Assembly (NCBI GenBank): GCA_010093605.1
Contig: MU004181.1
Span: forward strand, 2,914,001 to 2,978,000
From: Lophium mytilinum
Lineage: Eukaryota
DNA length: 64,000 bases
Reading direction: 5' to 3'
Shown: piece after piece, positions 29,173-54,524 of the stretch
How the letters are laid out: every line of letters starts with the position of its first letter
Numbering within the stretch: position 1 is the stretch's first letter
Translations under genes and position numbers: made by a program
Notes under the pieces: generated by a model
Told to the model about the DNA's origin: nothing
The model's database searches: none
What the model saw: only the letters and a program-made list of their open reading frames with translations

Positions 29173-31252
29173 ATGCCCCGATCGCATCGCCGTTCGACCA
29201 AGGTCTGCACACGATGCAGACAACGTAAGACCAAAGTACGTATCGATGCAGGCTATGCTTCCTTCCACGGGCACCTGTGCTGATAAGCTGCATAGTGCGA
29301 CTTCAAGTTCCCCGCATGCACATCCTGCAGAACAGCAAATGCAGCTTGTCTGGGGTTTGACCCTGCGACGAGAGAAGCAGTCCCGCGAAGGTAATCACAC
29401 AATCTGCAGCCTTCCGCAGCCTGCGGCCTGTATTGGCGGCTGAAGATGCCCTCTATAGCTTAGTCAAGTCTCTTGAGGCTCGTGTGGCGGAACTTGAGGC
29501 CCAAGTGCTTCATTTTCGAGCAGCCCCTCAGAATGTGCCCTACTCCATGGCTTCCAAGATTGCGCAGGCCACTATTTCATTCGATTTGCCTAGGCATAGC
29601 TCGTTTCTGCACTCCAAGGTCTCCTCGGCTCTCTTTTTCCGCCCTTCATGCCCCCCGCTGGCTGTCATTGGGGAACGGGGAAGAGAAGAAGGCAAGTTTC
29701 CTGCCAATGAGCATTCCCCTGATCACCACAAAAGACCGTACACCGGTAGTCTGATCAATTTGAAAAGCGTGCCTCGCTCGGCCTTGACACGCATGATACG
29801 CAACTACGCTGATACTCATCTGCCTCAATACCCCTGCGTGGCTGAGTCTATGCTGGAAGATATCGTCCAATACACCCAGGATGCCGAACTTGGAGACACG
29901 AACTCGATCCTAATTTACGGGATCCCCGCTAATTCACGTCTTGGTCATTTTGAATACTTTACGCTTTTCATCGTTTTAGCTATTTCAGCCATCACTTTGA
30001 CGTGGAAAGCCGAAGATCAAGCGCGAGAGGCATCTGCGTCCTTCTACAAGTCCGCTTTGAAACACCTCCAGGCCCTAGAAGGTCACAGCGAGATCCAAGC
30101 CCTCCAAATTTCATTGCTCTTGGCCCATTACGCGCACATGTGTCCAGAGAGGGTGGACAATTGGACTTGCATTGCCAATGCAGTCCGGATAGTTTTAAGT
30201 CTGGGCCTATACGGGAATGGTCCAGAAGGGCTTGATGCAGAACAGGTCCAGCTACGATCGGCGCTCTTCTGGGTAACTTACGGAATGGAAAGGTCATTGT
30301 GCGCCAACCTTAGGCTACCCTTATCGTTTCCAGAAGAGATAGTCACTACCAAGGTAAGTGATCCCGCTCTACTCCTCTCCTTTCTCATTCACAGTAATAG
30401 TACCGACCTCCCCACGAAGAGCCTTCCCATGAATCTGCTGCCGATAGCGCAAAGAAGTCTTCTGCCCATCACATCTACCGGTATCGTGGTTTAGAGACCG
30501 AGGTCCATAGAGTACTCCATCTCGAAGAGGATATTCACACTTTTGGCAGCTCAACAGTGGAAGACTGGATTGTAGACATTACCGGTCGCTTAGTGTCCTG
30601 GTACGACGAGGCTCAACTCTACACACAGTATGACATGCTGGAGTTCAAGCATGTGCAATTCTACCACCTCAGGGCTCGTATTCATCGACCAACTCCCCGG
30701 CTGCGGGTGAGGGATTTTGAGGATCGACGCGTTGTCCTGGAATCATCTCTGGAATTGATCGAAGACTATCTTGGTCAGGACCGCAGACGAAGACTGTTCT
30801 ATCCCTGACATGGTGTTCATATTCTATTCGAAACCGCCGTCATCGCCCTAGAGGCATGCTGGTCATCTCGCGACTATCGGCCCTTGCGAGACCTGGCTCT
30901 GCAACTACTCGAGAGATCTATCCCCCAGTGCTTGCAGCTGCTCACCAGTATTGGGGACCGATGGAACGAAGCTACCTTATGCACCCGAAGCCTGACTCCG
31001 CTGCTTCAAAAGGTCTCATTCGCTTTCACCAGGAGCCAAGACGTCTCCGTTTACGACGACACGTTGATAACGGAAGAGATTCATAACATACTCTTTTCGG
31101 ACCAGTCCCTGACTTGGGATCAGGTCACACACACCCACTATGACTTTGGCGTGGAAGAAAATGCTTTGTTCTTCGACAACGCATCAGGTGATGATACGGT
31201 GCTCCTCCCGTGGGCCGCTGAGTGGGACATTATGCCGGCGGAGCTCCTATAA
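29173..31252 (+). CDS. PPR1/UaY-like Zn(II)2Cys6 transcription factor with an internal in-frame TGA (30806-30808)
   Basis: Spliced CTRCRQRKTK/CDFKFPACTSCRTANAACLGFDPATREAVPR/SLVKSLEARVAELE; LRSALFWVTYGMERSL; the frame continues after FYP-TGA as HGVHILFETAV to 31252. Confidence 0.85.
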
Positions 31253-31474
31253 AAAGGCACACACTTAGTGAACACGAAGGCTACGTGGCGATGCAACTTG
31301 GCGACTTCAAATTCACAATCAATATGTAAGGCATTGTCTTACGATTATAATACTATCGGACACGAAAGCACAGATACAAAACGTCCCAATTCATAACCCT
31401 CGATGTAGTGAGAGGATGGCCCAATAAATCTACACAGCCCAGAGACGCGTGGTTTCTTTATTGGCACAACCGAC

Positions 31475-33192
31475 TCACATGGCGTACACGAAACGTGGCT
31501 GCTGCTTATCGGTGAGATCGAGAAACTCCTCGTTCTCGACTGGACCATTGTCATCACTACTTTCCGCGAGCTTCTTCTGCTTTCGCGCATTCAACCATCT
31601 AGCATAACAGAAATAAAGACCGGGAGCAAGCGCAGCGATGGAGAACATAATAATCATAGTCTTGAACCCCATAGGGTAGCCAGGTGCCTCGCTGGCGCGG
31701 AAGAATTGGGGACCGATGATAAAGGCTGTGGAGTATCCGACAAAGAGGAGGGCGGTGGACACAGATCGCTTGGTCTGGCCGGCGATGTTGGTGGTGGTGA
31801 GAGCGAACATCATCGGAAGTGACGCGTTGGTGAAGTTGGTGCAGTAGAAGGAGACGAGCCGCCCCGTGCGATTGTGCTTAGGGAGCGTGTACACGAGAAC
31901 GGATCCGATGACGGCAGGGACGTTGCAAGCGAACTGCATCAGGCAGCGTGTGTTCGGGTAGTAGAAGGTTACGAATCCGGCGGTCACAAGCCCCATGCAT
32001 TGCGTCAACCCCAGAGGTGTGTTGAGCAGAGATGTCTTGAAGCTGTCATAGCCGAATCCTGGAGGAATGTGTTAATCCAAATAGCTTCATGTTCACGGGA
32101 AGACCGGTACCTTTGATGATGAGGCCGCCAAAGTTGGCCACCGCCGTGGCGGGAACGACACAGGCAATGCTGTAGAAGAAGCCATACCAGACCTTGATAT
32201 CAAGCAAGGCTTCGACGAGTTGTTCCTTCTTGAATGTAGTGTTCGAAATACCAGTCCGGTTGTCGCGCAGCCTTTCGATCGCAATCGCCCGTTCCCTTTC
32301 ATTGAGGAATTTGGCAGTCAAAGGGCTGTCTGGCATATATATCCACAGCACGGCACCCCACAATAACCCAACGATACCAAAGATGATGAAAAACCATCTC
32401 CAAACGGCGATACCAGTGTCGATGTGGGCAATTCCGTAAGCAATGAAGGACTGAAGGATGATCGCAAAACCATTTCCACAGTACCACGTGGTGATGCGGA
32501 GTGGAATCTCGTTCTTCTTGTACCATGTGCCGGTGATGAGGACGTATGCTGGAGATACACCAGCCTCGGCCATACCCAAGAAGAAACGAACTGCCATCAT
32601 TCCTCGGAAGTTCATAGCTCCGGCAGTGCAGAATAGAATGACTGCCCAAATGATGGAAGTGGTTGCCACGAAGCGACCAAGGGGCACATAGTTGAGCAAT
32701 CGGGCTGCAAAGGGTTGGAAGGCGAGATATCCAAAGTAGAAGATTGACCTGGAGCGTTCCAGATTGGTTGAAAACTTGAAGTTGGGTTTAGAGGATACTC
32801 ACGAGCACCAAGAGTACTGTTGACCTTTCAGTCCGAGATTCGAGATCAGATCGTAGACCGCCGATTGAGCCATGACACTCTTATCCATGTACTGGATCGT
32901 GTACGAGATAACCATCTGCCCAGAAAACTTGTGAGTACACGAAAAGCAAATACGGGGAAGAAGAGAAATAGATCTAGTTCACACAACGGAGGGGATATGC
33001 GTGACATACGAGTGGCATCAAGACCCAGTCAATCTTGCGTAGAACCGCTCTCTCCTCTTCTTTTGTGTATGTTATAACCTCAGACGTCTCAAGGTAGGCT
33101 AGAGCCGCATCTCCCTGTCCTGGTTTCAGGGCAGCCTTGAAATCCGGCTCTGAAGTAGAATTCATCTTGACAGAGATGCTTCCTTCACCCAT
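31475..33192 (-). CDS. MFS transporter, Dal5/allantoate permease (ACS) family, 4 exons
   Basis: EERAVLRKIDW, QYMDKS, RFFLGMAEAG, TWYKKNEIPLR, WRWFFII, NIAGQTKR, FLDLTDKQQPRFVY. Confidence 0.93.
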
Positions 33193-34008
33193 TGTGATAG
33201 TGTTTTCGAAGTGTGCAGATGTTGACTTTGAAGGAAGAGTTCAAATCTTCAACTCGAGGGTTCGACGGAGTAGTATGGACGTCCTTCCGTAAACGGGGTT
33301 CTCCACCCTGTAGATATGAGATTGACTCGATGAGTACTGGATGTAGATCCCAAATCGCAGGTTTGAGGCTCGACTAAATACCATACGATAGTCATTGTTG
33401 TTATCTTTCGTGAATATCAGAAAGATAGAATGCGATAGGTTGAGTAGTGCGTCAATGTGCTACATTATTCCGCAGTAGCTCAGTTACCAAGCTGGAAATC
33501 TTCAGTTAGGCGTTTCCCGACTCCATGGGCAAAATCGTCGCGTTGCGCCGAACCCGATTATCAGGAAGCCTAGTAGATAGCCTAGTGAGGTAGTTCCATT
33601 CTAGGCCTCATACAGGCCCCGGCTTTTCTCCGTCAAGAGTGGTGTGGAGAATCTTGACGAGGGTGCCAGAATTACCCCATGATGTCGAATTTAGTGCTTA
33701 TTAAAGACCTTTTACAGTCTGAGAAGGGACCGCGATGCAATTGTAGTATATACATGACATGGTACCTAAAGGGATGTATGTTAGACGGTTGCTAGTCACG
33801 TGCTCGGCTAACGCCAGCATATATCTCTCGCTGCGCGCCTCCTTTTCCTTTATCTCCTCAATGACTCGTCTCTCAATACCTGATTACCATGAATTCCATT
33901 TCCAGCCCACCCTTCCGCACTCCTATCTCTTACACAGTCTCTCTTTTCTTGAAGCAAAGCCGTTAGACTTAAAATTAACCATGTTGTTCTTGAGTCATTT
34001 GCACGTAT

Positions 34009-34020
34009 CGGGTTTACCCG
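34009..34020. promoter_or_regulatory. CGG-N6-CCG inverted repeat (PPR1/UaY-type site) in the MFS/amidohydrolase divergent promoter
   Basis: tCGGgtttacCCGg. Confidence 0.5.
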
Positions 34021-34255
34021 GTTTTGTCTAGTAAAATCACGCTTTGATCCGATGCGGTGCTTCCGATTCCGACTTTTCTTATCGTCTATAGTTCGGCTTC
34101 GCTCTACGTCTTTAGTTCGATAATACAATCCATGTTTCAATGCGCATATCTCAGAGGCGTTTTTGGATGATTTAGTTCTAGACGTAAAGTCTGCTCTATC
34201 GACGTAATCATTTCCATAGGCTCTTATTCGTCTAATGCTCGGATCAATAACCATC

Positions 34256-35664
34256 ATGACCCAATATACACTGCACACATCGTCGCTGTTCGATCCCAAG
34301 GCCAAACGAGTTCGACAGAATATTTCAATCACTGTTGACTCTGCAACTGGCCTGATCACTCGGGTCTTCGAGCGCGATGACAAAAAGGCACCTTTCTCTG
34401 AGACGATGAAGGAGGGAGATATTGACCTGCGCGCAAAGTATGTATTGCCTGGACTGGTCGACGCACATACGCATGTTTTCCTGCATTCTTACGAGTGAGT
34501 TCCCAGCTGCTTCGTTAGCGCTACTTCTGATTCCTAACCAAATCTATAGCGAGAGAGGTGCTCTGCAGCAGAAGAGAGACGAAAGCATGACCGAGAGAAT
34601 CGTCCGTGGGGTCAATCATTGCCGCACAGCGCTTCTTGCGGGCTACACAACCTACCGGTAATTATTTGCAGCATCCTTTTTTTCGTCTCTGTCGATTCTG
34701 ACTCACCTTCTGCTTGGTCAGGGATCTAGGTTCAGAAGGCATGCAAGAGTGTGACGCGAATTTACGAGATGCTATTGCTCGGGGTCTGACTCCTGGCCCT
34801 CGCCTATTCGTCGCGACAAAGGTCATTGCTAGCACCGGTTCTTACGAGTGTCGCACAGAGAACAGCGGTGGAGGCCACTGCTTACCCGCGGGCGCTGACG
34901 CTGTCGATGGGGTAGAACAGTGCCGTCAGGCAGTTCGACGACGTGTTGCCGCAGGAGCAGACATTATCAAATTCTTTGCAGATTACAGGCGAAGAATCAT
35001 GAGGTCTCCGCCTGCACAGCAACATCCTTATATTCCAGGTGTGCTTCATCCCTCCAAGGAGCCGAACCCTGACTATCTGGTGTTTTCACAAGAGGAGATG
35101 AACACGATAGTCGCAGAGGCTGCGATGGCACGCTGCCCGGTGTCCGCTCATTGCTGTACCCGCGAGGGAGCGTTAGCGGCCATCGAGGCGGGCGTCAACA
35201 CGCTTGAGCACGCTTATTTCCTTTCAGATGAGATGTGCAAGCTGATGGCCGAGAAAGCCATCATTCTGGTGCCTACGCTCGCAATTGCTGAGAAGCTGCA
35301 CGCCCACCGGTTTGACGAGATTTTGCGTCAAGTCAAACGAGCCCATGATCTTGGTGTTCGAATTGCATGCGGAGGAGATACAGGCACGTTTCCGCATGGT
35401 GACAATGTCAGAGAGCTAGAGCTAATGATCGAGGCCGGCATACCCATTGCGGATGTTTTAGAATCATGTACTGTGGGCGGCTGGGAGGCATGTGGCGGCG
35501 ATCTCTGTGGACGGCAATTCGGGTGGTTTGAAGAGGGCTCGCAAGCAGACATCATTGCTTTGGACGAGGACCCAGAATACAACCCTGGTGCTTTGAGATC
35601 AGTCAATTTTGTTATGAAAGATGCTAAGGTCTGGAAAGCTAGCGGCGAGCAGTGTGGTATATAG
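34256..35664 (+). CDS. Metal-dependent amidohydrolase (amidohydro_1; prolidase/ochratoxinase-like subgroup), 3 exons
   Basis: PGLVDAHTH, LLAGYTTYRDLG, GADIIKF (carboxy-Lys position), VSAH, TLEH, GGDTG. Confidence 0.92.
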
Positions 35665-35981
35665 TTTAGAAATATACAAAATATCGACAGACTCGAACTC
35701 ACATACTCATAATTCAAACGACGTATACGCTCCTCTGTAGACCTTTCAAGTTGTTTAAGCATACGAATCATATTTCTCAAGCTTACAGAGCGTTTGCGCT
35801 TTTTCAAGGGATGCATCAAATCAAAATGGCCCCAGAAAAACGAGTTTGGCGTCCCAAGTCATATGCGCACATAAATCCATAGATAAAAGGGTCCCATCAG
35901 CATGTTCAGTTATCTACGTCTTATTTGCATCGATTCCTATGAACAGACTCAAGTCTACCATAGGCATCTGACACCGGATCA

Positions 35982-37854
35982 TCATCGTAGGAGAGGCTCA
36001 GCATCAACTCCAGGAACTAAGTCGGCCAACTCGTCCTGAGATTGCGTCAAGCACTGCTCTAGAACTGATGTATCCCTTGGCGTAAACCTTACTTTAAATT
36101 CCGAGGCGATAGAGTTTGACTCAGTTGAATCACGTTTATACTTAACATAATCTGTGTTCGGAGGTGACACTTTACTCTCCGTGATTTTAAAGGACACGAT
36201 CAAGCGGAGAAATAGTGCGTAAAGCACTCGATTGGAGAAGTTGACAGCAGTGCACATACGGCCACCAGCTCCAAAAGCGAAGTGGTACGGTGGTGGAATG
36301 CCATGGTCCTTCTCTACCCATCGGTCTGGGCGGAACTGGTCGGCGTCGGGGCCATAAGTGTTTTTGTCTGGCTTCTAATTAGCGAACAAATACGCATTCG
36401 ACCAGAAAATGGAAGAAAGTGCCTACCGCGGTTTATCGCTTGGGTGTTGATATAAACGAGCACACCTTTCGGGATAGTAGCTCCTTTATAGACAAATTCC
36501 GTGAAGGTCTGTCGCGCTGGGAGGAGTTTTAGCGGTGGATAGAACCTCAAAGCTTCTTTCACCAGGCCAACCAGGTAGGGACTCTTCTCCTCCGTTAAGC
36601 AAAGCTTAAAAGAATCTTCAGGCGTATCGTAGACTTTCATGATATCGTCGTAAGCCTTTTGTTGCATCGACTGTCCCTGCGCCGTCGATAACATTCCAAT
36701 GGTGATAATGGCAGTTGAATAAATAGTCTCGAACCCGCCCGACATAAGGCCACCGAGAATAGTTTTAATATCAACTTTGAAGGTTAGCATCCTTCCGGCA
36801 GGAGATATTTCGAATCAGTGACACATACGCGCAGTGAGGTCCTCCTGGCCACTGTCTGCAAGCAGCATTTCGGCCACGCTCTTTTTAGGCCCAGTGCGCA
36901 GATTGAACGTGTGACGAACATTGTCCAGCATTTTCGCCAGCCATTCGTCCCGGCGGCTACGGACCTCTTTGGCCGTTGTCATTCGTCCATTTCCACCGAG
37001 ATATCTCAGGTGAGGAATGAAGTCTTGAGCATTGGAGTTCGTTGACCGAAAGCTGTAAAGCATGAGCGTCCATGTTATTCAACACGTGGGTACCCCATTC
37101 GGGAGTCATACCTAGCAATGGTGCTGGCGTCTTTCAAGATCTGAAGAAGTAGAGGGTCTTTGACCGAAGAAAAGCGTGTGCCGTAGCAAAACATCATCAT
37201 GAGATTTAGAGCGAGCCGCTCCTGGTAAATATGAGGCATAATTTCGGCTGTTCCCTTTTGACTGTCATAGTAGAGCGTCGAGATTACTGCGCAAGTCTCC
37301 ATGTCTAACGCATTTCGCAGCTTTTGAATCGAGGGTCCCGTCGTGAATGCGCCCACGACCCGTCTCTGCTTTTTAGTCCTCTCATCCCAAGGGCTTGTTC
37401 CGATTGTTGCGGCTGTAGTGAATGATTTCAGCACACGTGTTAATCTTAGGAATAGCTATCACCCACCTGAAGTAGCCGAAATGATTCCATGGAACGTGTA
37501 GAACCATGGTCGATCCAAGGTGGCTGACTGGTTTTTAACAATCCAGTCACGAGCGGCCTCAAAAGAATTTAGCATGATAGCCCGTCGTCGTCCCATTCTG
37601 AGCTGAAAAACGGGCCATCCATATCTGGAGGCCCATGCTTCCGCAGTGGTGGCATGGTCCGTTCCCAGTTTATAGAGATGGCCAGCGAGGAGTTCACCGT
37701 CTGGAATTTCGGGAATCCCGTTGATTTTCGGTATATCAACGTAGAAGAAGTAGAGATAGACAAATATCACCGCAGTGATTGTTGTCACGAAGAGGCCCGA
37801 GAAAAGCAAGAGTTTGGACCTGAAAGGGGAAAGTACGATGTCCATGGCGGGCAT
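35982..37854 (-). CDS. Cytochrome P450, CYP504-like (phenylacetate/hydroxyphenylacetate hydroxylase family), 5 exons
   Basis: IPEIP..GHLYKLGTDHA, DRPWFYTFHGIIS, TIGTSPWDE, GGFET, KEALRF, heme motif HFAFGAGGRMCT. Confidence 0.88.
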
Positions 37855-38147
37855 ATTTTCTCAATAGCGAGTAAACAAAAGAGTACAAATGGCCGAACGG
37901 TGTCTCTTGACATGCTCTGGGGCTATCCAAATATGCAGGAGCTCGTCCGTGAACTGGTCTTGAAGGCACATTGGTAAAAAAAATTCGGAGTATACAAATT
38001 ATCCATTTTTAGCGTAACAATCCCCAGCGCATTGACGAGGAAATCGGGTGATAGGGTCGTCGGCGTATCGCGTCGGTTTTCCACAATCCGTCGCAGAACG
38101 GCGAAAAAGGCCCAGTTTCGGGCCGTTTCCCCAAACTCAATCAGCTG

Positions 38148-38159
38148 CGGTTTCCCCCG
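38148..38159. promoter_or_regulatory. CGG-N6-CCG site in the P450/SDR divergent promoter
   Basis: gCGGtttcccCCGa. Confidence 0.5.
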
Positions 38160-38296
38160 AACGATCTGAAAGAGAATGAATAGATAACGTTTAACAAGAT
38201 TCTGAAAGCGACGTAAACTTATACTGCATACAATGTAGACGCCTTGAAAGAGGTTGTCAAGTCTCATCACGGATTTATCAAAGGCTAATTTCGATT

Positions 38297-39382
38297 ATGG
38301 CAAACCATCTGCGGGTGAACGAGCTTTTCGATGTTGCAGGTCGCTGGGTAGCAATAACTGGCGCGGGTGAGTCCTCTCAAAATCCCCCTTTAGCCACCGA
38401 TATAGTGTGGTTCATTCACTGACGTCGACTATTTAGCTTCCGGTATAGGTCACATGCTTGCACGAGGCTGCACAATTAACGGAGCAAATACAATATTAAT
38501 AGATGTCAACTTGGACTCTCTATCAAGCGTTAAGGCCGAACTAGAAAGCCTCTCGTCTTCTTCTGAAACCGTCGTGTTCGTCTGCCGATGTCCCCCTTAA
38601 AGATTGATTCACTGACATAGATGACAGTATTCATGGCGACCTTTCAAGTGAGGATGGAATCAAGGAAGTCGTGGAGAAAGTCAAGTCCACACAAACTTCA
38701 CTTGATGCGCTGATTCATTGTGCTGCGGTGCGGTACATGAATGAAGTCACTTACGTTCCAGGCGATGCCCTGGACAAACTCGAGGCTGCAACGCTATCTG
38801 CACCTTACGAAGGCTGGGAGCATACTTTTAGGCTAGCAAGTCGTCTATGCTTGGGATGCTTGAGTAAGATGCTAATCGTCTACTAGAATGTTCTCGCACC
38901 TTATTTCTTGACTGCTGGCTTGATTAGCCTCCTCGGAGCGGCAGCCGCAAAGGGTGAGGGAAGGGGCTGCGTGATTTTGTTTAGCAGTCCCGCCAGTGTG
39001 CACAACCACCAATTCGTTCCTTGCTACCAAACTTCAAAGGCAGCAGTGGACCACCTTGTTAGGATTATGGCGGCCGAATTTGCCGACTACTATAGTAAGA
39101 CTCAGCATACTTACAGTACACCCTCCAGCTTACCAGTCTGCAGTCAGAGTCAATGCCATGTCCCCTGGAATAGTTCCGTCTGGAATGACGACAAGTAATG
39201 CTGAATCGAATCTTCATCTGGCTGCTGAGGCCCCAGCGGGCCGAGCCGGCAGTGAAGAAGATATGGTGGGAAGCGCATTGTGGTTGATGAGCAAAGCCGG
39301 CGCTTTCATGGACGGGAAAGTCATCCGAATTGATGGAGGACGGTTGCTCATTCTCAAAGGCGTGACATCAAACTCCGACTGA
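38297..39382 (+). CDS. Short-chain dehydrogenase/reductase, multi-exon
   Basis: VAITGA/ASGIG glycine motif across an intron, catalytic YQTSK, RVNAMSPG, IRIDGG. Confidence 0.9.
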
Positions 39383-39835
39383 CGTAGCGTCATGCCTCAA
39401 TAAATCCTCTCGATGGTGATATATCTAATTGATCCAATGTATGTACAGAATTCAGCGGTTAGTGCGTCTTTTCAAAGGTCCATATTCCGGTATCCTATCG
39501 AAAGGTCAGACCTAGAATCGTGAGTGCATTGGTAACAGTTGGATTGCACGTCATCCAGCAAAACTCTGTATTAAGAGTGCTCAAATTTGGAGAGAGATGA
39601 GCCGAGCGGGATGCACCCGCAATCTAGGTATCATGGTCATGTTTGACTTCTGCGGAGAAAGGATTGAAATAGAACCCATTTTTACGTGACAGGCTCGAAT
39701 AGAGAATGACAGAAGTAGCAATGGAGCTCGATCCTCAGAACATGTAGCGAATAAGAAAGACGTATCTATAACATTGAAAGCACTCACAAAGCAAGACTTG
39801 AATTCCCACATAGCCCAGAACACGTAAGAGTGGGC

Positions 39836-39847
39836 CGGATCACTCCG
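39836..39847. promoter_or_regulatory. CGG-N6-CCG site upstream of the C45 hydrolase
   Basis: cCGGatcactCCGt, about 195 bp upstream of ATG 40042. Confidence 0.5.
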
Positions 39848-40041
39848 TCGGCAGACACTAAATTGTCGCGAAAAGCCGACGATGCAGTCCAGTGCAGGAG
39901 GTCTTATCAAATCAATTATTAGTTCAGACTGTTTCCTTGCCCAAAATGAACTCACTATCTGAGCCCTTCGATTTTATTCCTGCTCGAATCTGAATTTTGT
40001 CAAAAAACCACTAGCATCTTGCGCACTCGAAGGTCGAAACC

Positions 40042-41139
40042 ATGCCGTCTGGAAACGCACGTAGCGACGTCGCTGAATGCTGGAACGGAGTACCCGAGGT
40101 CATAGCTAGCGGTTCACCTTGGGAGGTTGGGTTCGCTCACGGAAGTCAAATACCACATCGGATTGCAGTATGCATTTCCAACTATGAGCGGCTTTTCCTT
40201 GAAACTGCCGAAGCCGACTGGACAGAATCGAAGGCCAGAGCAGCTACATATCTTCATTCTTTAGAAAAGAACGAGCCAGATCTTGTGGAGGAAATGCGCG
40301 GAATTGCTTCTGGTGCCGGACGGGATTTCTTGGATATCCTTGCGCTCAATTTGCGTAGTGAGATAGCCTTGACGAACTATTCAGATGGATGTACGTCAAT
40401 CGTCACGCGAAACGCCGCTCGAGGAGAGGTGTACCTAGCACAGAACTGGGACTGGGTAGGAGAAGCCGGCACGTCAACCGCCTTTTTCGACATTCGACCA
40501 ACCGGCAAGCCACGACTTCGGATGATGGGAGAGGCAGGAATTGTAGGCAAGTTTGGATTCAACGACTCAGGTGTTGGCGTCTGTATGAACGCGATCAGGT
40601 GTGGAACAGTCGACAAGTCTCACCTGCCTGTTCATCTTGCGATGCGACGGATCCTAGAGTGCAGGTCATTTGACGAAGCCCTGGTTATGTTGACCAGCAA
40701 AGGGCTAGCCACATGTGCAAATCTTGTGCTTGCCGACAAAAGCGGAAAAATTGCTACCATCGAATGTACACCAAAAGGTCTAGCTCCTATTTTTCCGGAG
40801 CCAGGAAGCTGGACGACTTTCCACACCAACCATCTTTGGTCGCCGCACGTACCTGCCGGCATTCGGGACCATCCTTCTAAAAATTCTTTCTCCAGGCTAG
40901 AACGAATCAAAGTCTTGAGTGAAGACCAAGAAGCAAGCGTAGAGAAGATCCGATCATGGCTTTCAGACGACGAAGGAACGCCTGTGTCCATCTGTCGCTC
41001 TACGCCAGACAATGCCGTCGGTATCGAGAGGATGGAAACTCTGGCAACGATTATTATTGACCTGCCAAACTTGAAGACTGAAGTGTCCTTTGGCAAACCA
41101 AGCCTCTCACCTCCCGTGCGTACTTTAACGATCGAGTAG
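40042..41139 (+). CDS. Peptidase C45 / acyl-CoA:6-aminopenicillanic acid acyltransferase-like Ntn hydrolase
   Basis: GFAHG, EEMRGIASGA, LNLRSEI, autocleavage site DG|CTS, AQNWDW, EAGIVGKFGFNDSGVGVCMNA, HTNH; intronless; no C-terminal PTS1. Confidence 0.92.
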   Translation: MPSGNARSDVAECWNGVPEVIASGSPWEVGFAHGSQIPHRIAVCISNYERLFLETAEADWTESKARAATYLHSLEKNEPDLVEEMRGIASGAGRDFLDILALNLRSEIALTNYSDGCTSIVTRNAARGEVYLAQNWDWVGEAGTSTAFFDIRPTGKPRLRMMGEAGIVGKFGFNDSGVGVCMNAIRCGTVDKSHLPVHLAMRRILECRSFDEALVMLTSKGLATCANLVLADKSGKIATIECTPKGLAPIFPEPGSWTTFHTNHLWSPHVPAGIRDHPSKNSFSRLERIKVLSEDQEASVEKIRSWLSDDEGTPVSICRSTPDNAVGIERMETLATIIIDLPNLKTEVSFGKPSLSPPVRTLTIE

Positions 41140-41270
41140 CGAACATGGAGAGAGGACAAATCGGATGGCAAGCATGCTGCTTGATGAGTTGCGGTATCCT
41201 TCGAAACCCTCCATACCGCCGAACTTGATTGATGACGTCTCGCGTTGGGGACGGTGATAATGACTAAGCT

Positions 41271-43094
41271 TCATGTCATTTGAGCTGGTTCGAAGTCAAG
41301 CAATTCTACAATAGTCCTCCAAACTTGGAGATAGCGATGGCCGCCCGGCCAGTGTGGCGCAAACATAGATAGGATATCCGTACACTTGTTTAAGTCTTTC
41401 GTATGGAACTGTGAGGAGATCCATCTTTTGGAGATACTTGTGACGATTGCGCAGCCAGAGACGAGGGCCCTCGAGCTAGCTAAGATTGGTGGAATGAAGT
41501 CGTCCTTCGCGGTCGCAGCTCGGTGAACTCTGAGTATGAGCTGAGACGCCGCATCGATGACCTTGCGCCTCAAGCTTCTCATCCCTTTGGTACCGTGCTC
41601 ATCCGCCTCTTGGAAACAATGAATGCACTGCTTATGGTTGACGCAGACAGGCAAGAACAAAAGCCAACTTTCGAGGATAATTGCATGTTGATTTCCGACG
41701 CTTTCGGCCAAATCCATTAATGTGGCAACTTCACCAACGAATGGGCAGCCGCTGCTTTCGAATATTTGACCACCACCATATAATTGATCAGATAACTGGA
41801 GGAACACTTGGAACAGAGCCTCCTTATCAGAAGTATCCAGCAGCTTAGACGCAATTAACATGGTCGGTCGATTGAAAACTGTTTGTAAATCTCTATAGGC
41901 GGTAAGCCTAGGCAAGCACGTCGATACTGTATTGCGCTTACTTCTCAATATCCTGAAGTGCAGATATCATTCCGAGCTTACTGGGACTAGAACTGTTCGT
42001 CTCTGCCGTGCCTCCGCTCTCTAGCGAAGCGGCGCCAAAGTGTGAGATTCGTAGAGTTCGATGCCAGCCCAGCTGCAAGCATGTTCGTCTAGCGAGGTCG
42101 AGTAATTCCCAAGCATTGCCTCTGGTTGAATCCGCTAGCTCATATATGAGAAGCAATAGTGTCGCCGATAGCGCATCACCATCTGGCGTAGATATGATGG
42201 GTGTGACCAACTCGTTCGCCCAGTCTCGGCAGACCTGGGCTAATGGCTTCCAATCAGGACGCTTGTAGCTTTCGCAGGCAGCAGCAATTGCGCATGCCAT
42301 GAGTACCTTGAATTTCTGGGGATCAGGCAGCTTTTTAAAGCCCGCCCCGTCATGATTCAAGATATCTGTCTCTAGAACATCATATTGAGGCCTAATACAG
42401 CTGTCGTAGCGGCCGAGAAGAAATCGAACTATTTTGGGGGTCAGTAGGGATCTATTTAGGCCGTGTGAAATGTTTGGCATGGAATCAACATCGTCGGCGG
42501 CGGCGTCTAGGGCATCAGGTATCCTCCCGGGCAGTAAGAGTGCTCCAAACGTCGTTCCTGTGATGCGTGATGCAAAGGAAAGGTTCAGATATAGGTCCGG
42601 CCCTACGTCTCGTACAGAGACATGTAGAGGGTGGACTAGTTGCGGATTTGAAGATGCTATTGCCGCTGATGTTGTGCCCGTTGGATCGGTATGCAAGAAA
42701 TCGCTTCGTGAGTTTTCTAAATTAGCTAGATTGCATGACGTAACTAGTTGCAAATGACTTACTTGGGCAAACGGTGTGAGTGCAGAGCCAGCTCAGAGCT
42801 CAACTCTTGAATCCGATTGTTCAAGGACTGGATGTAACTAGATACTAAGTGAGTTCAGAAGTTGCGAAATTCGCTACAAGACGCAGACTTTCTAGGGATG
42901 TCCTTCTGGAGAGCCTCGTCTCTGAATTTGCAATCTAAATCGCCTTTGGCACAATTGGAGCATGCTGGAAGGAGGGAATCGCACTGCGGTATTGACGTCA
43001 GGGACAAGATCATCCTCGGTTTGCCCATGGGGACTATGCAGAGATGGAGTACCTTAATTCTTCGTTGCCGACAACGCGTGCATGTCTGCAGCAT
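41271..43094 (-). CDS. PPR1/UaY-like Zn(II)2Cys6 transcription factor, multi-exon
   Basis: MLQTCTRCRQRRIK/CDSLLPACSNCAKGDLDCKF...DIPR/YIQSLNNRIQEL; WELLDLARRTCLQLGWHR. Confidence 0.85.
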
Positions 43095-43219
43095 TGTGTG
43101 AGGCTACAGCTCCTACTGTCCACGAGATCCCGTGTGGTTGGTTCTTGGATGCCAGTAGTAAGAAAGGACAGATTGGAAGCAAAGCGAATCCTAGCAGAAA
43201 ACACGTCTGATGAGAGTGT

Positions 43220-43862: not shown

Positions 43863-45181
43863 CTACTGCCAGTGAGCAAGAACCGTCTCACCCTCCTTCA
43901 AACCTGCCAACCTCGCTGTCTCCTTCCATACCAACTCCCTCTTCGCTGCATCCCTCGACTCCTCGCTCGTCTCCAACGGCGCCCTACCATCAAAGTACTT
44001 GTCCTTCGGCAGCTCGCCCCCACTACCCACCCCAAACGCCGCCTCCAAGACATCGCCCGCCGAGCGGCTTAGTGGCCTCACTCGCCCGTTATTCGGGCTC
44101 ATATATAGCAAGGCCGGGTAGATAATCTTGAAAATAAGCACGCGGATCACCCAGGGTGCAAGTCGCTGATGGCCGGTGATCATAGGACCCGGGTCGACGC
44201 CGAGGATGCAGATGCTGCTGAGCGCGGCATCAGCGTTCAGCCGCGCCTGCAGCTCGTGCTGCATCATAATTACGAAGAGCTTAGAGGCGCCGTACCGCCG
44301 GAACCCGCCCCGGAAGGACGCGTCTTCGGTCGCAGGGCTCCATGTTCCCTTCGCGATCGCCTCGAAGCTGGCGGCGTCGGAGACAAAAGTCTTGTATTCT
44401 GGCTTCTCGAAGGCTTTGGTGACCGCGTTTCGCGGGTCCTTGGGACTAAGCAGTTACATGGTAGGTTAGCTTCGGTCCCGCTGTACATAGTAGTGCTTCT
44501 GGTGAAGCTATTCCGCTTATTCGGCCTCGACCGCCACACAGGATCAAAAACAAAAGCGCTAGGACACCAAAAGTGCTTTAGGCAAAAAGGAAAGTCACTT
44601 ACTCGTGACTTTGACTTCCAATTACCACAATTCGCCCGGCCTCCTTGTCTATGCTCTTGAGCAAAAGAAGGGTAAGTAGCCAGTGCCCGAGATAGTTTGC
44701 CGAGAAGGTAACGTCGAACCCGTCGTCCGTCCACGACTGCTTGCCAAAGTCCTGGAAGCCAGCGTTGAGGATAAGGGCGCTGATCGGCGGGATGTCGCCT
44801 GCCAAAACGCGAGCCTATGCGGAGATTGTTACCACTGGGCGCCTATATCGGTACCTGAAACATGTGCAGAATAACAAAGACGCAAGTGTGCAAGGATAAA
44901 TAAAGTTGTTGGGGTTGGGCGACGGGAGTTGGTGGACTTGCATTAATTCCCTCCGCCACCTGGCGAACATTGTCGAGCTTCGTCAAGTCGAGAGACACAA
45001 TGTCATGCTGGTGTGTGGCATCTTTTGTAAGGGTCGAGGTAAGAGTGGACGCGTGCGCCACGTCGCGGACGGTATAGAGCCCATAGTAGGCGGAAAGTTC
45101 GGGTTTCAAGGCAATTTGTTCTGCTATTGCGCTGCCGAGCCCGCCGTTTGCCCCTGTGACAAGGATAGACCCTTTGGCCAT
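43863..45181 (-). CDS. Short-chain dehydrogenase/reductase (retinol-DH/WWOX-like), 3 exons
   Basis: ILVTGANGGLG, LILNAG, NYLGHWLLTLLLL, RRYGASK, VDPG. Confidence 0.9.
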
Positions 45182-47780: not shown

Positions 47781-49243
47781 GGCTTTTAGTCTTATCAAAA
47801 CTGACCGTTTCCGATCTCTCAGAATGTGCTACAGGACTCTAGGCGGTGCTAGGCTAGCACACGAAAAGCCTAAGGGGCATATGTTGGAGTTTCGAATAAT
47901 GGAGCGCAGAGCTGTAAGTTGTAAAGTTATCTTACCTGGAGTTTATATAGAATTCACTAGCATAGAGATACGTCTCGAAACTGTAGGATCATCTGACCAG
48001 GTTGCACTACATTCTCTACGCCGCGACCGTACTGATATCCCTTAACCCGCTGAGACGCGCTCAACGATATCGCGCCAATCGGAACGTATCGCTTAGCTTA
48101 TCTCGTGCTCCGATTAGCTTTTGGCAAAAGAGTTGTAGGTTTGCAGCGGGTTAAGGGATAGAATGGGCTTTTTCCGAGCCACGGGCGGCCGTAGAATGAT
48201 TGGAACCGACAGAGCAGGTCTTTCTCAGGGTTAGCAACATGTGCTAGATATGTTTTCTCGCTTAGGAGCCACTTAATCGGCACATAATCCTAAGTGCAAG
48301 ACCTTTCAATCAGATCGCTCCATTTTCTCCCACGCTGCAACCGTACCAAACATAGAGAGTTGATTGTCAGAAACGCGGGCGGTTGTAGATTGAATGGAAA
48401 TTGCAGGAAGACATTGCCAGTGGGGAGTGGGAGAAGCCGATGAGCAGAGGCAGATATGGTGTGCTGGTCGATAACGGCCCCGCTGTGAATTTGCTGCGTC
48501 GGGTATTTTCGCACTGGATGGGCATTCTAGTGGGGAGAAGCGTGATGGGGGATCGAGGAGTGCTGAGTGGATGTAGACATTGGTAGCTGGCCCTGGGACT
48601 CGCACTGATGGAGAACACAATGTTATACTGCAACACACGTGGATACATACTTTCAATCCGAAGGCGGGAGTCTAGCCCGCAAGTGTTTAGCGCATTGCGA
48701 TTGCAAAACCATGTTCAATGAAGATGCCAGGTCTCGGATGATGGAAGACAGGGCGGTCGTGTTAGCCAGTTTCAAGCTAGATGTTAGAGAGATCTCAACA
48801 CAGACTTGTTTGCATTTTGTGCAAGCTGAGCCCCTGATCAACTACCCAGGTCCAAATCGTAGAACTGAAACACGACAGAGGAAATCAGCTTGAACGAGAG
48901 ATCGCAACCGGAATGCGCCATTTTCATCGTAGTGATGAAGTGGAACGGAGAGCAGTGAATCATAATCTGGGTAGTCAAGATTCGGGTCCGGAATAACCTT
49001 CCTCCGCTGCAAAACGAAACCTCGGCGTACTTAAGCCCTGGCCTAGTGCCCGTTCCTCACCAGGACACCCTTGCACTACACCGTGTGTTATCATACCCAA
49101 GAGTCTCCCTAGAGGACGATTCTGAATTTGTACCTACGAAGCACCTCACGACTACCATTACGACCAGGACGGCTACGACTACTACCAACACCATCATACT
49201 AGGCACTCTGCGATAACTCACGTGCCTCTTCATTTCTTCTGCT

Positions 49244-50275
49244 ATGGAAGCCCCTCTCAAAAAGGTTCCAGCAGCGCTACTGCCAGAATGGATTTCAGAC
49301 TTGCCTCCACCCGTGAAGGTTCAAATGGAGGCTCGCGAAAAAGGACTCGATGATGACACGATCCCCCCTCCCGGAAACGTTCTAGCAGCGCCACTACCAG
49401 AATGGAGTTCAGACTTGCCTCCACCACCCTGGATCCTTCAAACGGCTCGCGTAAACCGACTAGATGATGATACGATCCCCCCTCCCAGAAGGGTTCCACC
49501 AGCGCCACCATCACTATTGGAGTCAGGCTTACCTCGACCCGTGATGCTTCAAATGGGGGCTCGCATAAACCGACTCGATGATGACACGATCGGAAAATCT
49601 GGCAGCAGAGTACGGCCTCGAGAGGAGGCTGCTATGAGGCTCGTGGCCAAACATACTGATGTTCTAGTCCCCGATGTTCAGTATTCTACCTACAACGAGG
49701 TTCATGGCGATCTATTCATGAGCATCATTCCAGGGTCGCCTCTCAGCGTCCATTGGGAGAAGCTTGATGATCAAACGAAGGAGCGCGTCTGTCATGATAT
49801 CTGGAACCTGATCGGGAAGTTTCGACAGATCCCAAAGCCACCTGAACTCAACAACTTCTTCCTTTGCTCGGCCGACGGGTCTTGCAGCCAGGACGTGTTT
49901 ATCGAAGATCTGGAATCTCCTCCTCGACCTCTTGTCGATGATGATGCTGTTAGAACTCGGATATCTGAACGCTACTATCACTATTATGGTCGAAGATATA
50001 CTAAGGAGGAGATACTTAGCTTGCTTCCTCACTCTCAGGCCTCCGTCTTCACGCATTGCGATATAGCACCAAGAAACATCATGGTGGACGACCACACTTA
50101 CCAGATCACAGGACTTATTGACTGGGAATTTGCTGGTTGGTATCCGGATTATTGGGAATATTTGAGAATCCATAAATATAACAACAACGAGGACTGGCGC
50201 GACTGGATGAACCGTACGGCACCGCAAAAATGGGATCTGGCAGGTTTCGTTGCGGTTAGTCGAGTGCTGTTCTAA
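49244..50275 (+). CDS. APH/choline-kinase-like phosphotransferase with tandem N-terminal repeats
   Basis: EEAAMRLV..HTDVLVP, LFMSIIPG, VFTHCDIAPRNIMV, GLIDWEFAGWYPDYWEY. Confidence 0.88.
   Translation: MEAPLKKVPAALLPEWISDLPPPVKVQMEAREKGLDDDTIPPPGNVLAAPLPEWSSDLPPPPWILQTARVNRLDDDTIPPPRRVPPAPPSLLESGLPRPVMLQMGARINRLDDDTIGKSGSRVRPREEAAMRLVAKHTDVLVPDVQYSTYNEVHGDLFMSIIPGSPLSVHWEKLDDQTKERVCHDIWNLIGKFRQIPKPPELNNFFLCSADGSCSQDVFIEDLESPPRPLVDDDAVRTRISERYYHYYGRRYTKEEILSLLPHSQASVFTHCDIAPRNIMVDDHTYQITGLIDWEFAGWYPDYWEYLRIHKYNNNEDWRDWMNRTAPQKWDLAGFVAVSRVLF
49250..49592 (+). repeat. Three imperfect 114-bp (38-aa) coding tandem repeats
   Basis: gatgatga(c/t)acgatc recurs at 49349, 49463 and 49577. Confidence 0.9.
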
Positions 50276-51880: not shown

Positions 51881-52460
51881 CTAGGCTCCTTTCTTTCCAA
51901 GATCGTGACCGTTCATTGCAGCTTCATAACACAGATTACGAGTTGCTTCGAACATCTCAAAGTGATGCCTTCAGCCTCGAGTCGTTGTTTGCCGTAATTG
52001 TCAACAATGAACGTATTAGGCTCCGGGATTCCGACATAAACCGTCCTGAGTTTTTCCTTCAGTGCCACAATCCGATCGCAGCACGTACGGTTGCCGCTGA
52101 GCCTGGCGTTGCACGGTCCCATGTTGGTATACAGAACTATATTCGCGGGAAGCAGGTCTTCTATGCGCTCCTCAGCACACCTGCGGAAAGATGGTGCTTC
52201 TGAGCAATTTTGATGAAACAACATTGCTCTGCATGCGTGCTTCCCGAATCGCCTTCCATGTAGCCAGGTAATTCGATGGAATATCCTGTCGATGAGACTT
52301 CTCCAGTGTGGCCGTTGGCGAGCACAGCGCCGACGCAAAATCTATCGGGACCTGGGGGCGGGGCGATAGGCGAACCTGTTGCATATCATATTTCATGAAA
52401 GCATTGTGGTCGCCTGGAGCGATCTGAGGATGAGTGGCATTCGCCGTGAAGCTGTGCCTT
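51881..52460 (-). pseudogene. Cytidine-deaminase-fold (DRAP/Rib2-like deaminase domain) gene with about 3 frameshifts
   Basis: Joined frames: HPQIAPGDHNAFMKY / [28 protein letters not shown] / VLYTNMGPCNARLSGNRTCCDRI..VYVGIPEP / ..AMNGH; HAE and PC..C zinc motifs. Confidence 0.8.
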
Positions 52461-53144
52461 GAGGTCCCGAGATGTTGTCGACTAGGCAGAACCTATGAGT
52501 TTTTTTAGGGGTACGAAGTAGCTCGCTATCGGACAGGGGCTTTAAAAATACTCTAACTGTTGCACTAAACCTCTCTGTTTCAAGGTTTTTATTACAAAGG
52601 GTGCGGCGCGGAGCTCAATCCGATCTCCACCAGCTACGCGAGGCGAGGAACATCAAAACCACCAGTTTTCGGTATCTTAGAAGAGCTACACCACAACAAT
52701 TACCGCGACCAGATACAATCTAAATTCGTAGAAGTATCTTTTGGTGCTTCTTGATAATATTGTTCGAAGAAAGTAAAATTATTGACCGATGGTGGGTGGT
52801 GCAAAGCAAATTTTGAGATTTGGGTGAGATGCTTACGTAACCGGATTATGCTCTGGGCCGCACCCTTTGTACAGGATCTTGCAACAACATTAGGGGTTTC
52901 GATATTTTCAATGAACTTACACACCTTTATCATACGACAGTCCTAGGTCCCTACTTCCTAAGTCCTAAAGATCACACGCCTACTACCCTCTGTTGCGCGT
53001 TGATCAGCACTACTGGCACATTCTTTGCTGTGGAAAATGAGGATCCGTGCATCGGCGTTCGGAGAAACTAATTGATCCTAAAAGAGCCAAAGAGGCCGCG
53101 ACCTGCACCCATTAACGACTATTGCAGCCGATTCGGCTCTAGTT

Positions 53145-54524
53145 ATGACCTATCTACTACCGACGCATCTTTCTCTATCTTGTAGTGATCCCCTAGGAAT
53201 TTGCGATGAAGAGGATCCAACCCAAGCCGACGTACTTAGCCAGCTTATTCACGAAGCGCGTATCGCCCCAGGAGTCTCATCTCTCGCTACTTTGATTGAG
53301 GACATCGCTTACTCTATACATGGAAATGGAAGACTGGATACATCTCATCTACGCTATCTTCTTCGCACTAATTGGACAGACCAATACGTTGCTGCTCTAC
53401 AGAATCTGTTAGAATCGGCTCTACGTGTTCCCGATCTGTTCGACAAAAGCGCGCTCAATACACTGAATGGCCCTAATATATCTTCCACGATACCAAACTT
53501 TCCTTCAAGTTCATCAGTTGTGCAGTTCACTGGTCCCCAAATAAATGCTTTGCTTGCACACCAATTCCTCGGAACTTTATCTCAACCAGCAGGAAATACA
53601 TGGGGACTTCCTTGCTTCACGTCCTGGTTTTCTGGAGGTGCTGCACATGAGAATGCTGTTGATGGCTATTTGGCAACAATCCTACGCCATTTCGAGCATG
53701 GGGGATACGACGAGTCGGCCAGTTTCTCTTTCCTGATGCAAAAGGCTGACCCGATGCCCAATCCCTCACAGTGCGAGGCCATCCCAGATCTTGAACTGGT
53801 TGTAGTATTCGAAGAATCCGAAACATCTAGCTCGAACTCTGAGATAGAGTCTCCTTTTGTTCTTGTTGCAGCTCATTCACAACCTGGCCCTGGACCGACG
53901 GCCACGCACGAGGAACGCCTCCAGTCCGCGTCACCTGCGTTGAGTATATCAGCCTTAGTCTCGCCTATCATTCCTCCCGACGCTGCTGTTATTACTTCGG
54001 CCTTCCCGCTCCACGCCGCGTGGAAAGGTCATAACCGTACTGCACGGCTCGAATGCCTAATCCCTCCGTTGTCACGCCCCAAGCGTCACTATATACTTGC
54101 AGACGCTCTTCCATTAGACGAGGCGGATGATGTAGAAGGTGGTGGCTTGAGAGATCTACAGGCGGGTCGCATGTTACGAGAGGTCCGGAAACTTTTCGCA
54201 GCGTTTGAGGGCTCAAAGGTGATGTGGTCACAGGCCGAACAGCTTTCTTCAGCTCCGTGCGTTGTAAAAGCGGTGGCATGGGGCTGTCAGGCTTTTGGGG
54301 GGAACGTGCTAGCAAAATGTGTATGCATGATGATCGCAGCAGGACTCTCCGGAGTCCACGTAGATCTTTCGCTGCTGGAGAATCGTGGTGAAGATATCGA
54401 AGCCGTGAAGGAGGTCCTATCAAGGAAGCACTCCGTTTCAGAGCTTTGGAAGATAGTCGAAAGTCCCGAAGTTTGCCATTGTAGAGACAGTGCTGAGCTG
54501 AAAGAATTCATTTTGTCTCATTAA
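53145..54524 (+). CDS. Poly(ADP-ribose) glycohydrolase (PARG)-like macrodomain protein
   Basis: QINALLAHQFLGTL, catalytic-loop-like PGPGPTATHEER, LADAL, REVRKLFAAF, WGCQAFGG. Confidence 0.8.
   Translation: MTYLLPTHLSLSCSDPLGICDEEDPTQADVLSQLIHEARIAPGVSSLATLIEDIAYSIHGNGRLDTSHLRYLLRTNWTDQYVAALQNLLESALRVPDLFDKSALNTLNGPNISSTIPNFPSSSSVVQFTGPQINALLAHQFLGTLSQPAGNTWGLPCFTSWFSGGAAHENAVDGYLATILRHFEHGGYDESASFSFLMQKADPMPNPSQCEAIPDLELVVVFEESETSSSNSEIESPFVLVAAHSQPGPGPTATHEERLQSASPALSISALVSPIIPPDAAVITSAFPLHAAWKGHNRTARLECLIPPLSRPKRHYILADALPLDEADDVEGGGLRDLQAGRMLREVRKLFAAFEGSKVMWSQAEQLSSAPCVVKAVAWGCQAFGGNVLAKCVCMMIAAGLSGVHVDLSLLENRGEDIEAVKEVLSRKHSVSELWKIVESPEVCHCRDSAELKEFILSH

Follow-up and report, generated by a model that had tools for sequence, protein, structure and literature searches.

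A gene cluster conserved across fungal classes in Lophium mytilinum, with a probable role in amide uptake and breakdown

What do seven contiguous genes do together when they encode two unrelated amidases, a cytochrome P450, an oxidoreductase, a permease and two transcription factors, with no biosynthetic backbone enzyme beside them? This question is raised by a locus of Lophium mytilinum (assembly GCA_010093605.1, contig MU004181.1, forward-strand positions 2,914,001 to 2,978,000), a 64-kb stretch of DNA that was analysed whole and is referred to here as the window. The genes encode, in order, a Zn2Cys6 transcription factor (TF1), a permease of the major facilitator superfamily (MFS), a binuclear metal amidohydrolase, a P450, a short-chain dehydrogenase/reductase (SDR), a C45 N-terminal nucleophile (Ntn) hydrolase resembling isopenicillin-N acyltransferase (IAT) and the IAT-like protein (IAL), and a second Zn2Cys6 factor (TF2). 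All seven genes are present, their families are recognizable, the catalytic motifs of the enzymes are intact, and the linkage recurs across fungal classes. Based on these observations, we propose that the locus is probably a conserved, co-inherited fungal cluster for the uptake and the breakdown or detoxification of an amide that bears a carboxylate, the likeliest candidate being an amino acid or small peptide in an aryl-acyl amide.

Linkage of the cluster genes in other fungi

Homologues were collected with the C45 protein, the large amidohydrolase exon and one P450 exon as queries, and later with the C-terminus of TF1; synteny was read from NCBI locus tags, consecutive accessions and contigs of exactly equal size. 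The matches comprised the 120 listed for C45, the best 120 of 3623 for the amidohydrolase, and 61 for the P450. In Capronia coronata, the tags A1O1_07005, 07007 and 07008 are the C45, P450 and amidohydrolase genes, and Exophiala aquamarina has the same family order (A1O9_02067, 02069 and 02070). C45 and amidohydrolase genes lie three tags apart in both Penicillium angulare (N7456_004995 and 004992) and Cyphellophora europaea (HMPREF1541_06001 and 05998). The gene spacing in these four Eurotiomycete genomes equals that of the window. Amidohydrolase and C45 are also close in E. dermatitidis (HRR83_004018 and 004020), the P450 (TVY28548) adjoins C45 (TVY28549) in Lachnellula hyalina, and all three genes fall within five accessions in Clonostachys rosea (CAG9942477 for C45, 480 for the amidohydrolase and 481 for the P450), C. 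byssicola and C. solani. One contig of only 10,298 bp carries all three.

The amidohydrolase and P450 genes are directly adjacent in many genomes. Its tags are consecutive in six strain pairs of Aspergillus niger (e.g. AnigIFM60653_011876/011877), with one further pair of consecutive accessions, and in Fusarium floridanum, F. euwallaceae, F. ambrosium, F. kuroshium, F. oligoseptatum and Neocosmospora mangrovei. The two genes are likewise neighbours in A. welwitschiae, Talaromyces pinophilus (KAF3402674/5) and Penicillium occitanis, and have consecutive accessions in Ilyonectria robusta. Among the matches listed, 59 C45 orthologues have at least 55% identity; an amidohydrolase shares the contig, judged by equal size, in 19 of them, a P450 in 18 and both in 12, so that 25 of the 59 are linked to one or both partners. 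Some of the shared contigs measure only 12.9, 18.1 and 28.1 kb.

For TF1, the C-terminal 283 codons, read through an internal TGA, were compared with 1.84 billion representatives. This search gave 125 matches, of which 16 reached E 1e-30 or lower, and ten were looked up for their neighbours. TF1 orthologues adjoin C45 (HMPREF1541_06002, beside 06001) or lie near the amidohydrolase (N7468_003181, near 003184; AtubIFM55763_007431, near 007435), the P450 (ABZX51_008049, near 008046) or ACJ41O_012256 and 012258 (ACJ41O_012262), and a 17,395-bp contig bears a TF1 orthologue together with C45 and the amidohydrolase. Full-length orthologues from A. tubingensis and Cyphellophora are 54-59% identical to TF1. 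Judged from these matches, TF1 is a conserved, cluster-linked putative regulator.

The preliminary description of this DNA had proposed a search for conserved synteny as a check. Linkage in distant genomes is established for the four genes examined, namely amidohydrolase, P450, C45 and TF1, and linked orthologues are seen in Capronia, Exophiala, Cyphellophora, Penicillium, Talaromyces, several Aspergillus sections, Clonostachys, the Fusarium solani complex and Lachnellula. The neighbourhood is more than a product of chance and is conserved across fungal classes.

A tree was built from 58 of the 120 C45 matches listed, the 62 left out being mostly unnamed rows. The cluster-linked C45 proteins formed one clade (29 of the 58 rows, support 96), distinct from the other fungal C45 groups, which have 41-55% identity, and the window protein was sister to that of L. 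hyalina with support 96. Among the named C45 rows, none could be recognized as An02g08570, the IAL homologue of A. niger.

The likeness to Lachnellula, a genus of another fungal class, extends to two genes: the window C45 protein is 86% identical to that of L. hyalina and the window P450 is 85% identical to that of L. subtilissima (P0242). From these identities, the cluster may have moved horizontally; the C45 tree leaves such transfer undecided, its inner branches being short and the join of bacterial and Coniochaeta sequences carrying a long-branch warning. In Exophiala viscosa, a diverged C45 (P0070, 52% identity) and a diverged P450 (P0300, 42.5% over 522 aa) are on contigs of equal size (1352981), which hints at a paralogous version of the cluster. 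A metagenome scan for syntenic DNA found one orthologous locus among the 80 kept (L001, 68% identity), which at 1.9 kb is too short for context; the others had 28-41% identity.

Hydrolases, oxidative enzymes, permease and regulators

The spliced amidohydrolase is letter-for-letter identical to P0121, an NCBI hypothetical protein of L. mytilinum; it matches Amidohydro_1 at 1e-20, and both of its introns are joined in RNA. Its relatives in the PDB (8e-48 to 5e-25) are ADH3 (8IHQ), 8YAG/9L2O/9KOV/LlADH, the Xaa-Pro dipeptidase 2QS8, the Arg carboxypeptidases 3BE7/3MTW and ochratoxinase (4C5Y). The enzyme resembles subtype-II binuclear amidohydrolases, whose motif is given in a section of PMC7804941, in its TIM-barrel fold and in the set HxH, Lys, His, His and Asp. 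All of these, including the bridging Lys, are kept, and DAHTH, IKFFAD, SAHC, LEHA and GGDTG align with 9kov and 8yag. Ligand roles, mechanism and ochratoxin A hydrolysis have been described for ADH3-type enzymes (PMC12147602, in excerpt). The nearest solved relatives cut N-acyl amino acid or C-terminal amide bonds, and the window enzyme appears to belong to this subgroup, as the preliminary description had claimed. Unlike the window enzyme, the aligned bacterial amidohydrolases are without an insertion of approximately 17 residues (YRRRIMRSPPAQQHPYIP), and the fungal orthologues, 65-86% identical among themselves, are set apart from the bacterial relatives. Identity with the Caulobacter Xaa-Pro dipeptidase was considered and rejected (199 bits against an equivalog cut-off of 500). 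In A. niger, the P450 orthologue is An15g04380, and the numbering suggests that the adjacent An15g04370 is the amidohydrolase orthologue; an extract of PMC7804941 places An15g04370 in the MEROPS M38 list together with ochratoxinase An14g02080.

The modelled C45 product, identical to protein P0001, matches PF03417 at 5.4e-24 and NF040521 (C45_proenzyme) with 257.9 bits against a cut-off of 85. It aligns with IAT of Penicillium chrysogenum (2x1d) with 123 bits (E 1e-34). IAT (PenDE) and IAL share with it the C45/AAT fold and the DGCT element with its Gly-Cys self-processing site: DGCTS aligns with DGCTT of IAT, and none of D115, G116, C117 and T118 varies among 27 orthologues. The counterpart of IAT Ser227 is Thr. 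At Ser309, reported in part of PMC2692852 as essential in the thioesterase active site of IAT, the two proteins differ; G-K-S309-R-G of IAT aligns with G-I-E-R-M, and the Glu (E329) is nearly invariant across the 27 orthologues. The protein ends in ..RTLTIE, not in ARL or ANI, the endings tested for a type 1 peroxisomal targeting signal (PTS1). Unlike penDE, the gene has a single exon and stands beside neither pcbAB nor pcbC, and the window is without a non-ribosomal peptide synthetase (NRPS). Because Ser309, PTS1 and introns are absent, the C45 protein is not a penicillin acyltransferase, and this identity was rejected. It is closer in these features to IAL, which has no PTS1, has an intron content unlike that of penDE and occurs in fungi without penicillin. 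The P. chrysogenum IAL is self-processed yet without penicillin-related activity, and no other role is given for it in the text consulted from PMC2692852. To judge from these features, the C45 protein behaves like an IAL-type Ntn amidohydrolase, that is, a hydrolase. The preliminary description had assumed just such an IAT-like C45 hydrolase, and PF03417, the Gly-Cys nucleophile and the absent Ser309 all fit.

A comparable pairing occurs in bacteria. Bacterial C45 homologues (30-39% identity) were taken with 8-kb flanks, and two neighbours per side were scanned in 20 of 80 loci. An Amidohydro_3 gene was adjacent to C45 in six of the 20 and an M20 peptidase in five, while 14 were without an amidohydrolase neighbour; solute transporters of the SSF, DcuC/AbgT, TRAP, Asp-Al_Ex, ABC and MFS types were frequent. 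In six loci (L082, L085, L094, L102, L109 and L113), C45 stands directly beside an Amidohydro_3 gene of approximately 540 aa, with two copies in L109 and L113; these loci look like uncharacterized operons for amide or peptide utilization. Such neighbourhoods resemble the window in joining a C45 hydrolase, a metal amidohydrolase and a solute transporter, and differ from it in the amidohydrolase (the type here is of 430 aa), in having no P450 and in the low C45 identity. By analogy, the repeated pairing of C45 with a metal amidohydrolase in bacteria, too, supports the view that the two hydrolases break down amides together.

The permease matched MFS_1 at 1.5e-21 and, as its best model, TIGR00893 ('2A0114') at 1.1e-38 on the 250-aa exon 3 piece and 2.8e-9 on exon 4, scores of exon pieces only that lie below the whole-protein cut-off. 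The next-best model was HpaX, the 4-hydroxyphenylacetate permease (1.7e-13), and the ESM Atlas name is 'MFS' only. From these matches, we assign the predicted permease to the anion:cation symporter (ACS) family, TC 2.A.1.14. Dal5 is a member of the ACS family. Of the earlier label 'Dal5-type', the family assignment stands on the TIGR00893 match, and the tie to Dal5 itself comes from general background.

The P450 model contains FAFGAGGRMCTA with the heme Cys, EALR and PDRW, and Pfam p450 was found on three exon pieces. It aligns end to end with 61 matches, at 85% over 545 aa to P0242 (Lachnellula) and at 64-72% to most others. Source databases automatically name 17 of the 61 orthologues phenylacetate 2-hydroxylase, and the ESM Atlas name is 'Cytochrome P450' only. 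A PDB search with a P450 orthologue found no CYP504-like structure, the best match being CYP1B1 at 1e-17. PhacA and PhacB (CYP504) of Aspergillus nidulans are phenylacetate hydroxylases, with roles as cited in passages of PMC5863032 and PMC10785452; the former also gives, in the same excerpted form, the P450 family rule of >40% identity to a named member. The likeness of the window P450 to PhacA/PhacB consists in the orthologue names (17 of 61) and in the microsomal type of protein, which has an anchor at its N-terminus and the usual P450 motifs; only by description are the window-type orthologues set apart, by their length of approximately 545 aa and their position beside the amidohydrolase. 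Two further P450s were set aside: simA (PMC5863032) is a CYP548 and unrelated, and in an 853-aa P450-epimerase fusion of Fusarium nematophilum (P0270) the epimerase part has no counterpart in the window. In the SDR, adh_short and adh_short_C2 were found on four pieces, and the spliced model contains TGAASGIG, the Ser (FSSPAS) and YxxxK (YQTSK).

TF1 matches PF04082 at 9.5e-11 and has a CX2CX6C...CX2CX6C motif in the model. TF2 matches Zn_clus at 4e-4 and Fungal_trans weakly, and its likeness to TF1 is confined to the Zn-cluster region (33% over 99 aa). Each of the three core intergenic regions has a single CGG-N6-CCG site (34009, 38148 and 39836), and another lies upstream of TF2 (43220); these are four of the 13 sites in the window and fall within 4.6% of its length. 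The total of 13 compares with a shuffle mean of 12.98, and this spacing was picked from 48 tried, so the sites are a weak lead.

Gene models, RNA contigs and the surrounding window

Pfam was run on 140 stop-to-stop open reading frame (ORF) pieces of at least 55 aa from 28.1-45.7 kb of the window, and on 124 ORF pieces of at least 95 aa from the rest of the 64 kb. Exon models were built for the seven genes (Table 1), and introns were checked as joints in contigs of one public RNA run; the RNA was kept as contigs, which cannot rank expression. The coordinates, order and orientation of the seven genes agree with those first described, the ends 29173 and 43094 being two start codons, and the gene models bear out both divergent pairs, permease/amidohydrolase and P450/SDR. 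The locus had also been called free of synthases, and across the ORF pieces of the 64-kb window Pfam found no domains of polyketide synthase (PKS), NRPS or terpene synthase, and no coenzyme A (CoA) ligase. The window is fungal in character: its introns are short and of the GT-AG type, and Pfam identified Zn2Cys6 factors and HET domains in it.

Table 1. Positions in the window of Pfam matches, gene models and divergent intergenic regions
Feature	Position	Strand	Details
Fungal_trans match	29361-30491	+	Pfam
MFS_1 match	31478-32798	-	Pfam
Amidohydro_1/3 match	34220-35661	+	Pfam
p450 match	35985-37455	-	Pfam
adh_short match	38406-39379	+	Pfam
AAT PF03417 match	40015-41136	+	Pfam, 5e-24
Zn_clus and weak Fungal_trans match	41941-43103	-	Pfam
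TF1, Zn2Cys6 and Fungal_trans factor	29173-31252	+	634 codons; introns 29236-29295, 29391-29458, 30354-30400
ACS-family MFS permease (predicted)	33192-31475	-	507 aa; modelled introns 33009-32916, 32802-32749, 32104-32059
Intergenic, divergent, permease/amidohydrolase	33193-34234	.	gene models
Binuclear metal amidohydrolase (MEROPS M38 / COG1228 type)	34235-35664	+	436 aa; introns 34495-34549, 34658-34721
Cytochrome P450	37854-35982	-	548 aa; 5 exons: 37854-37467, 37412-37112, 37052-36829, 36774-36427, 36367-35982
Intergenic, divergent, P450/SDR	37855-38296	.	gene models
Classical SDR	38297-39382	+	287 aa; 5 exons; intron 3 (38836-38886) predicted GC-AG
C45 autoproteolytic Ntn hydrolase (IAT/IAL-like)	40042-41139	+	365 aa; intronless; Pfam and model
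TF2, second Zn2Cys6 factor	43094-41271	-	531 aa; introns 41893-41941, 42704-42762, 42838-42888, 42984-43052

Canonical GT..AG or CT..AC joints were found at 11 modelled introns of the cluster genes: three in TF1, two in the amidohydrolase, one in the P450 (36368-36426), one in the SDR (intron 1) and four in TF2 (CT..AC). That RNA run therefore contains spliced RNA from the locus. For the three permease introns, no spliced joint was found in the contigs of this one run. A single RNA contig (30399-33332) extends unbroken from exon 4 of TF1 over the whole permease gene and keeps all three permease introns; it may represent TF1 read-through antisense to the permease.

A 938-nt RNA contig still includes SDR introns 3 and 4. 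The modelled intron 3, of 51 nt and with a GC donor (GCAAGT...CTAG), is the only frame-keeping third intron, and it is retained in the sole RNA contig that covers it. On the minus strand, a 3486-nt contig runs from 41892 back over the C45 gene, in antisense, to 39787. The TF2 introns are all joined at the same depth as this contig, and a further joint skips 293 nt (CT..AC, 39494-39786) between the SDR and C45 genes. The contig may be a long 3' untranslated region of TF2 or an antisense RNA, or the assembly may have merged convergent transcripts.

Outside the seven-gene interval, a second SDR gene (45181-43863, minus strand) lies directly upstream of TF2, and its intron 44446-44602 is joined in RNA. 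Farther downstream, an ORF at 51916-52341 (minus strand) matches the invertebrate AID/APOBEC-like deaminase family (PF18785, 5.6e-28) and lies near a PARG-like protein and an APH-type kinase (53082-54521 and 49217-50272, both plus strand), a trio unusual in a fungus. Upstream of the cluster are two HET-domain genes and a long WD40-repeat ORF (5948-8191, plus; 8946-10697, minus; 13837-16137, plus), which look like a heterokaryon-incompatibility or NLR-like neighbourhood.

Functional readings of the cluster

We infer the catabolic direction, the order of the steps and the class of substrate from the parts of the cluster. In the proposed pathway, the ACS-family permease would import an anionic compound, from which the binuclear amidohydrolase would remove the C-terminal amino acid at a bond of the N-acyl amino acid type. 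The C45 Cys-Ntn hydrolase, where present, would cut a second, acyl-amine bond, the P450 would hydroxylate the freed aromatic acid, the SDR would oxidize or reduce an intermediate, and TF1 would be the pathway-specific regulator. A phenylacetyl conjugate as substrate is plausible and coherent with the IAT-like hydrolase, the automatic name of the P450 and the HpaX-like signal of the permease; a substrate class as specific as this we regard as doubtful.

In the quinate (qut) and nicotinate (hxn) clusters of A. nidulans, catabolic enzymes are grouped with a permease and with a Zn2Cys6 factor specific to the pathway, and promoters are divergent. The window cluster resembles them in all these features and differs in its two unrelated amidases, P450 and SDR. 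It is probably an undescribed cluster of this fungal catabolic kind.

A number of observations weigh against the proposed amide-degrading cluster. Cluster content varies between genomes. Among the matches listed, 34 of the 59 C45 orthologues are unmatched to either partner, which may reflect the limited match lists or real absence. In Aspergillus section Nigri, where amidohydrolase, P450 and TF1 cluster, no C45 orthologue is named among the 120 matches listed, so the scheme with two amidases may not apply to every copy. In E. dermatitidis, C45 and amidohydrolase are two tags apart and no P450 orthologue is among the matches listed, and in T. atroroseus, C45 (UA08_02686) and the amidohydrolase (UA08_07996) are on different contigs. 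CYP504 membership of the P450 comes from automatic names only (17 of 61). The three core intergenic regions share no word of 8, 9 or 10 nt; for random triples the average is 0.77 shared 8-mers.

The reading frame of TF1 is a further such point, being interrupted by an in-frame TGA at 30806-30808 (+) (..LFYP*HGVHILFE..). Among the 34 aligned homologues, 32 cover this column and 31 of them have Trp; beyond the stop, which is followed by C, 147 codons are open and conserved. The RNA contig 30399-33332 has the same letters at the TGA and no splice there. Since the frame is open and conserved past the TGA and the RNA letters are the same, the TGA could have arisen recently as a nonsense change, could be a site of read-through or could be an error of the assembly.

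The functional assignment itself is predicted from sequence, and literature searches by gene-family names or locus tags gave no paper linking the cluster genes. A review on beta-lactam transport (PMC7183595) names three of the families without linking the genes, and one search turned up only an inventory of the A. niger proteases (degradome).

The alternative that best survives is that the locus consists of two or more modules, with a core of TF1, amidohydrolase and P450 (perhaps with two more genes), an optional C45, and a permease, SDR and TF2 that are lineage-specific and in part unrelated. We regard this as possible, if on balance unlikely. It would explain why amidohydrolase and P450 are consecutive in many genomes, including A. 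niger, A. welwitschiae, T. pinophilus and P. occitanis, why no C45 orthologue from A. niger or A. welwitschiae is among the 120 matches listed, and why TF1 lies three to four genes from the amidohydrolase/P450 pair in A. tubingensis; the varying gene order (in Clonostachys, C45, two other genes, amidohydrolase, P450) and the unrelatedness of TF2 to TF1 also agree with it. However, C45 is linked to its partner or partners in 25 of 59 contigs, some of only 10-18 kb, the spacing in four Eurotiomycete genomes is that of the window, and the bacterial adjacency of C45 and amidohydrolase argues for joint work of both hydrolases.

A bolder version of amide breakdown, which we consider rather unlikely, is that the cluster is a mobile island, spread patchily and possibly horizontally among Pezizomycotina associated with plants, wood and soil. 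The compounds it degrades would be aryl-acyl conjugates of amino acids, for example the phenylacetyl- or indole-3-acetyl-amino acid storage forms of auxins, or ochratoxin-like aroyl-amino acids, with TF1 as its dedicated switch.

It is improbable that the locus is a cryptic cluster for biosynthesis or tailoring that has no canonical backbone enzyme. On that view, the C45 protein would serve as an acyltransferase, and a small amide would be modified by the P450 and SDR and exported by the MFS protein. A transcription factor, an MFS transporter, a P450 and an SDR form the usual accessory set of secondary-metabolite clusters, and the gene set here matches it. Acyl transfer, too, is within the capacity of IAT-family enzymes, as stated in part of PMC2692852. 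Against this, the window is without PKS, NRPS, terpene synthase and CoA ligase by Pfam, the essential Ser309 of IAT is replaced by the nearly invariant Glu, the permease is of the uptake-type ACS family, and the relatives of the amidohydrolase are all degradative.

Transcription factors, MFS transporters, P450s and SDRs are very common families in Pezizomycotina, and their abundance could by itself bring them together, but a chance neighbourhood of unrelated genes is hardly credible when the same orthologues are adjacent in Eurotiomycetes, Sordariomycetes, Leotiomycetes and the window.

Uptake and breakdown or detoxification of a carboxylate-bearing amide is thus the reading we retain as probable. 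Fungal catabolic clusters are far less charted than biosynthetic ones, and this cluster occurs in tractable or important fungi, including A. niger and its relatives, Talaromyces, Clonostachys, the Fusarium solani complex, Colletotrichum and black yeasts. If its function is ordinary peptide or amide scavenging, the gain is one of routine annotation. Enzymes that detoxify ochratoxin come from the same group as the amidohydrolase, whose natural substrate is therefore of applied interest. For the IAL-type C45 family, the conserved partner genes offer a concrete and testable context. If the cluster is indeed a mobile island for aryl-acyl amino acid conjugates, it would provide the first physiological role for an IAT/IAL-like C45 hydrolase outside penicillin synthesis, and a role also for a new branch of phenylacetate-hydroxylase-like P450s.

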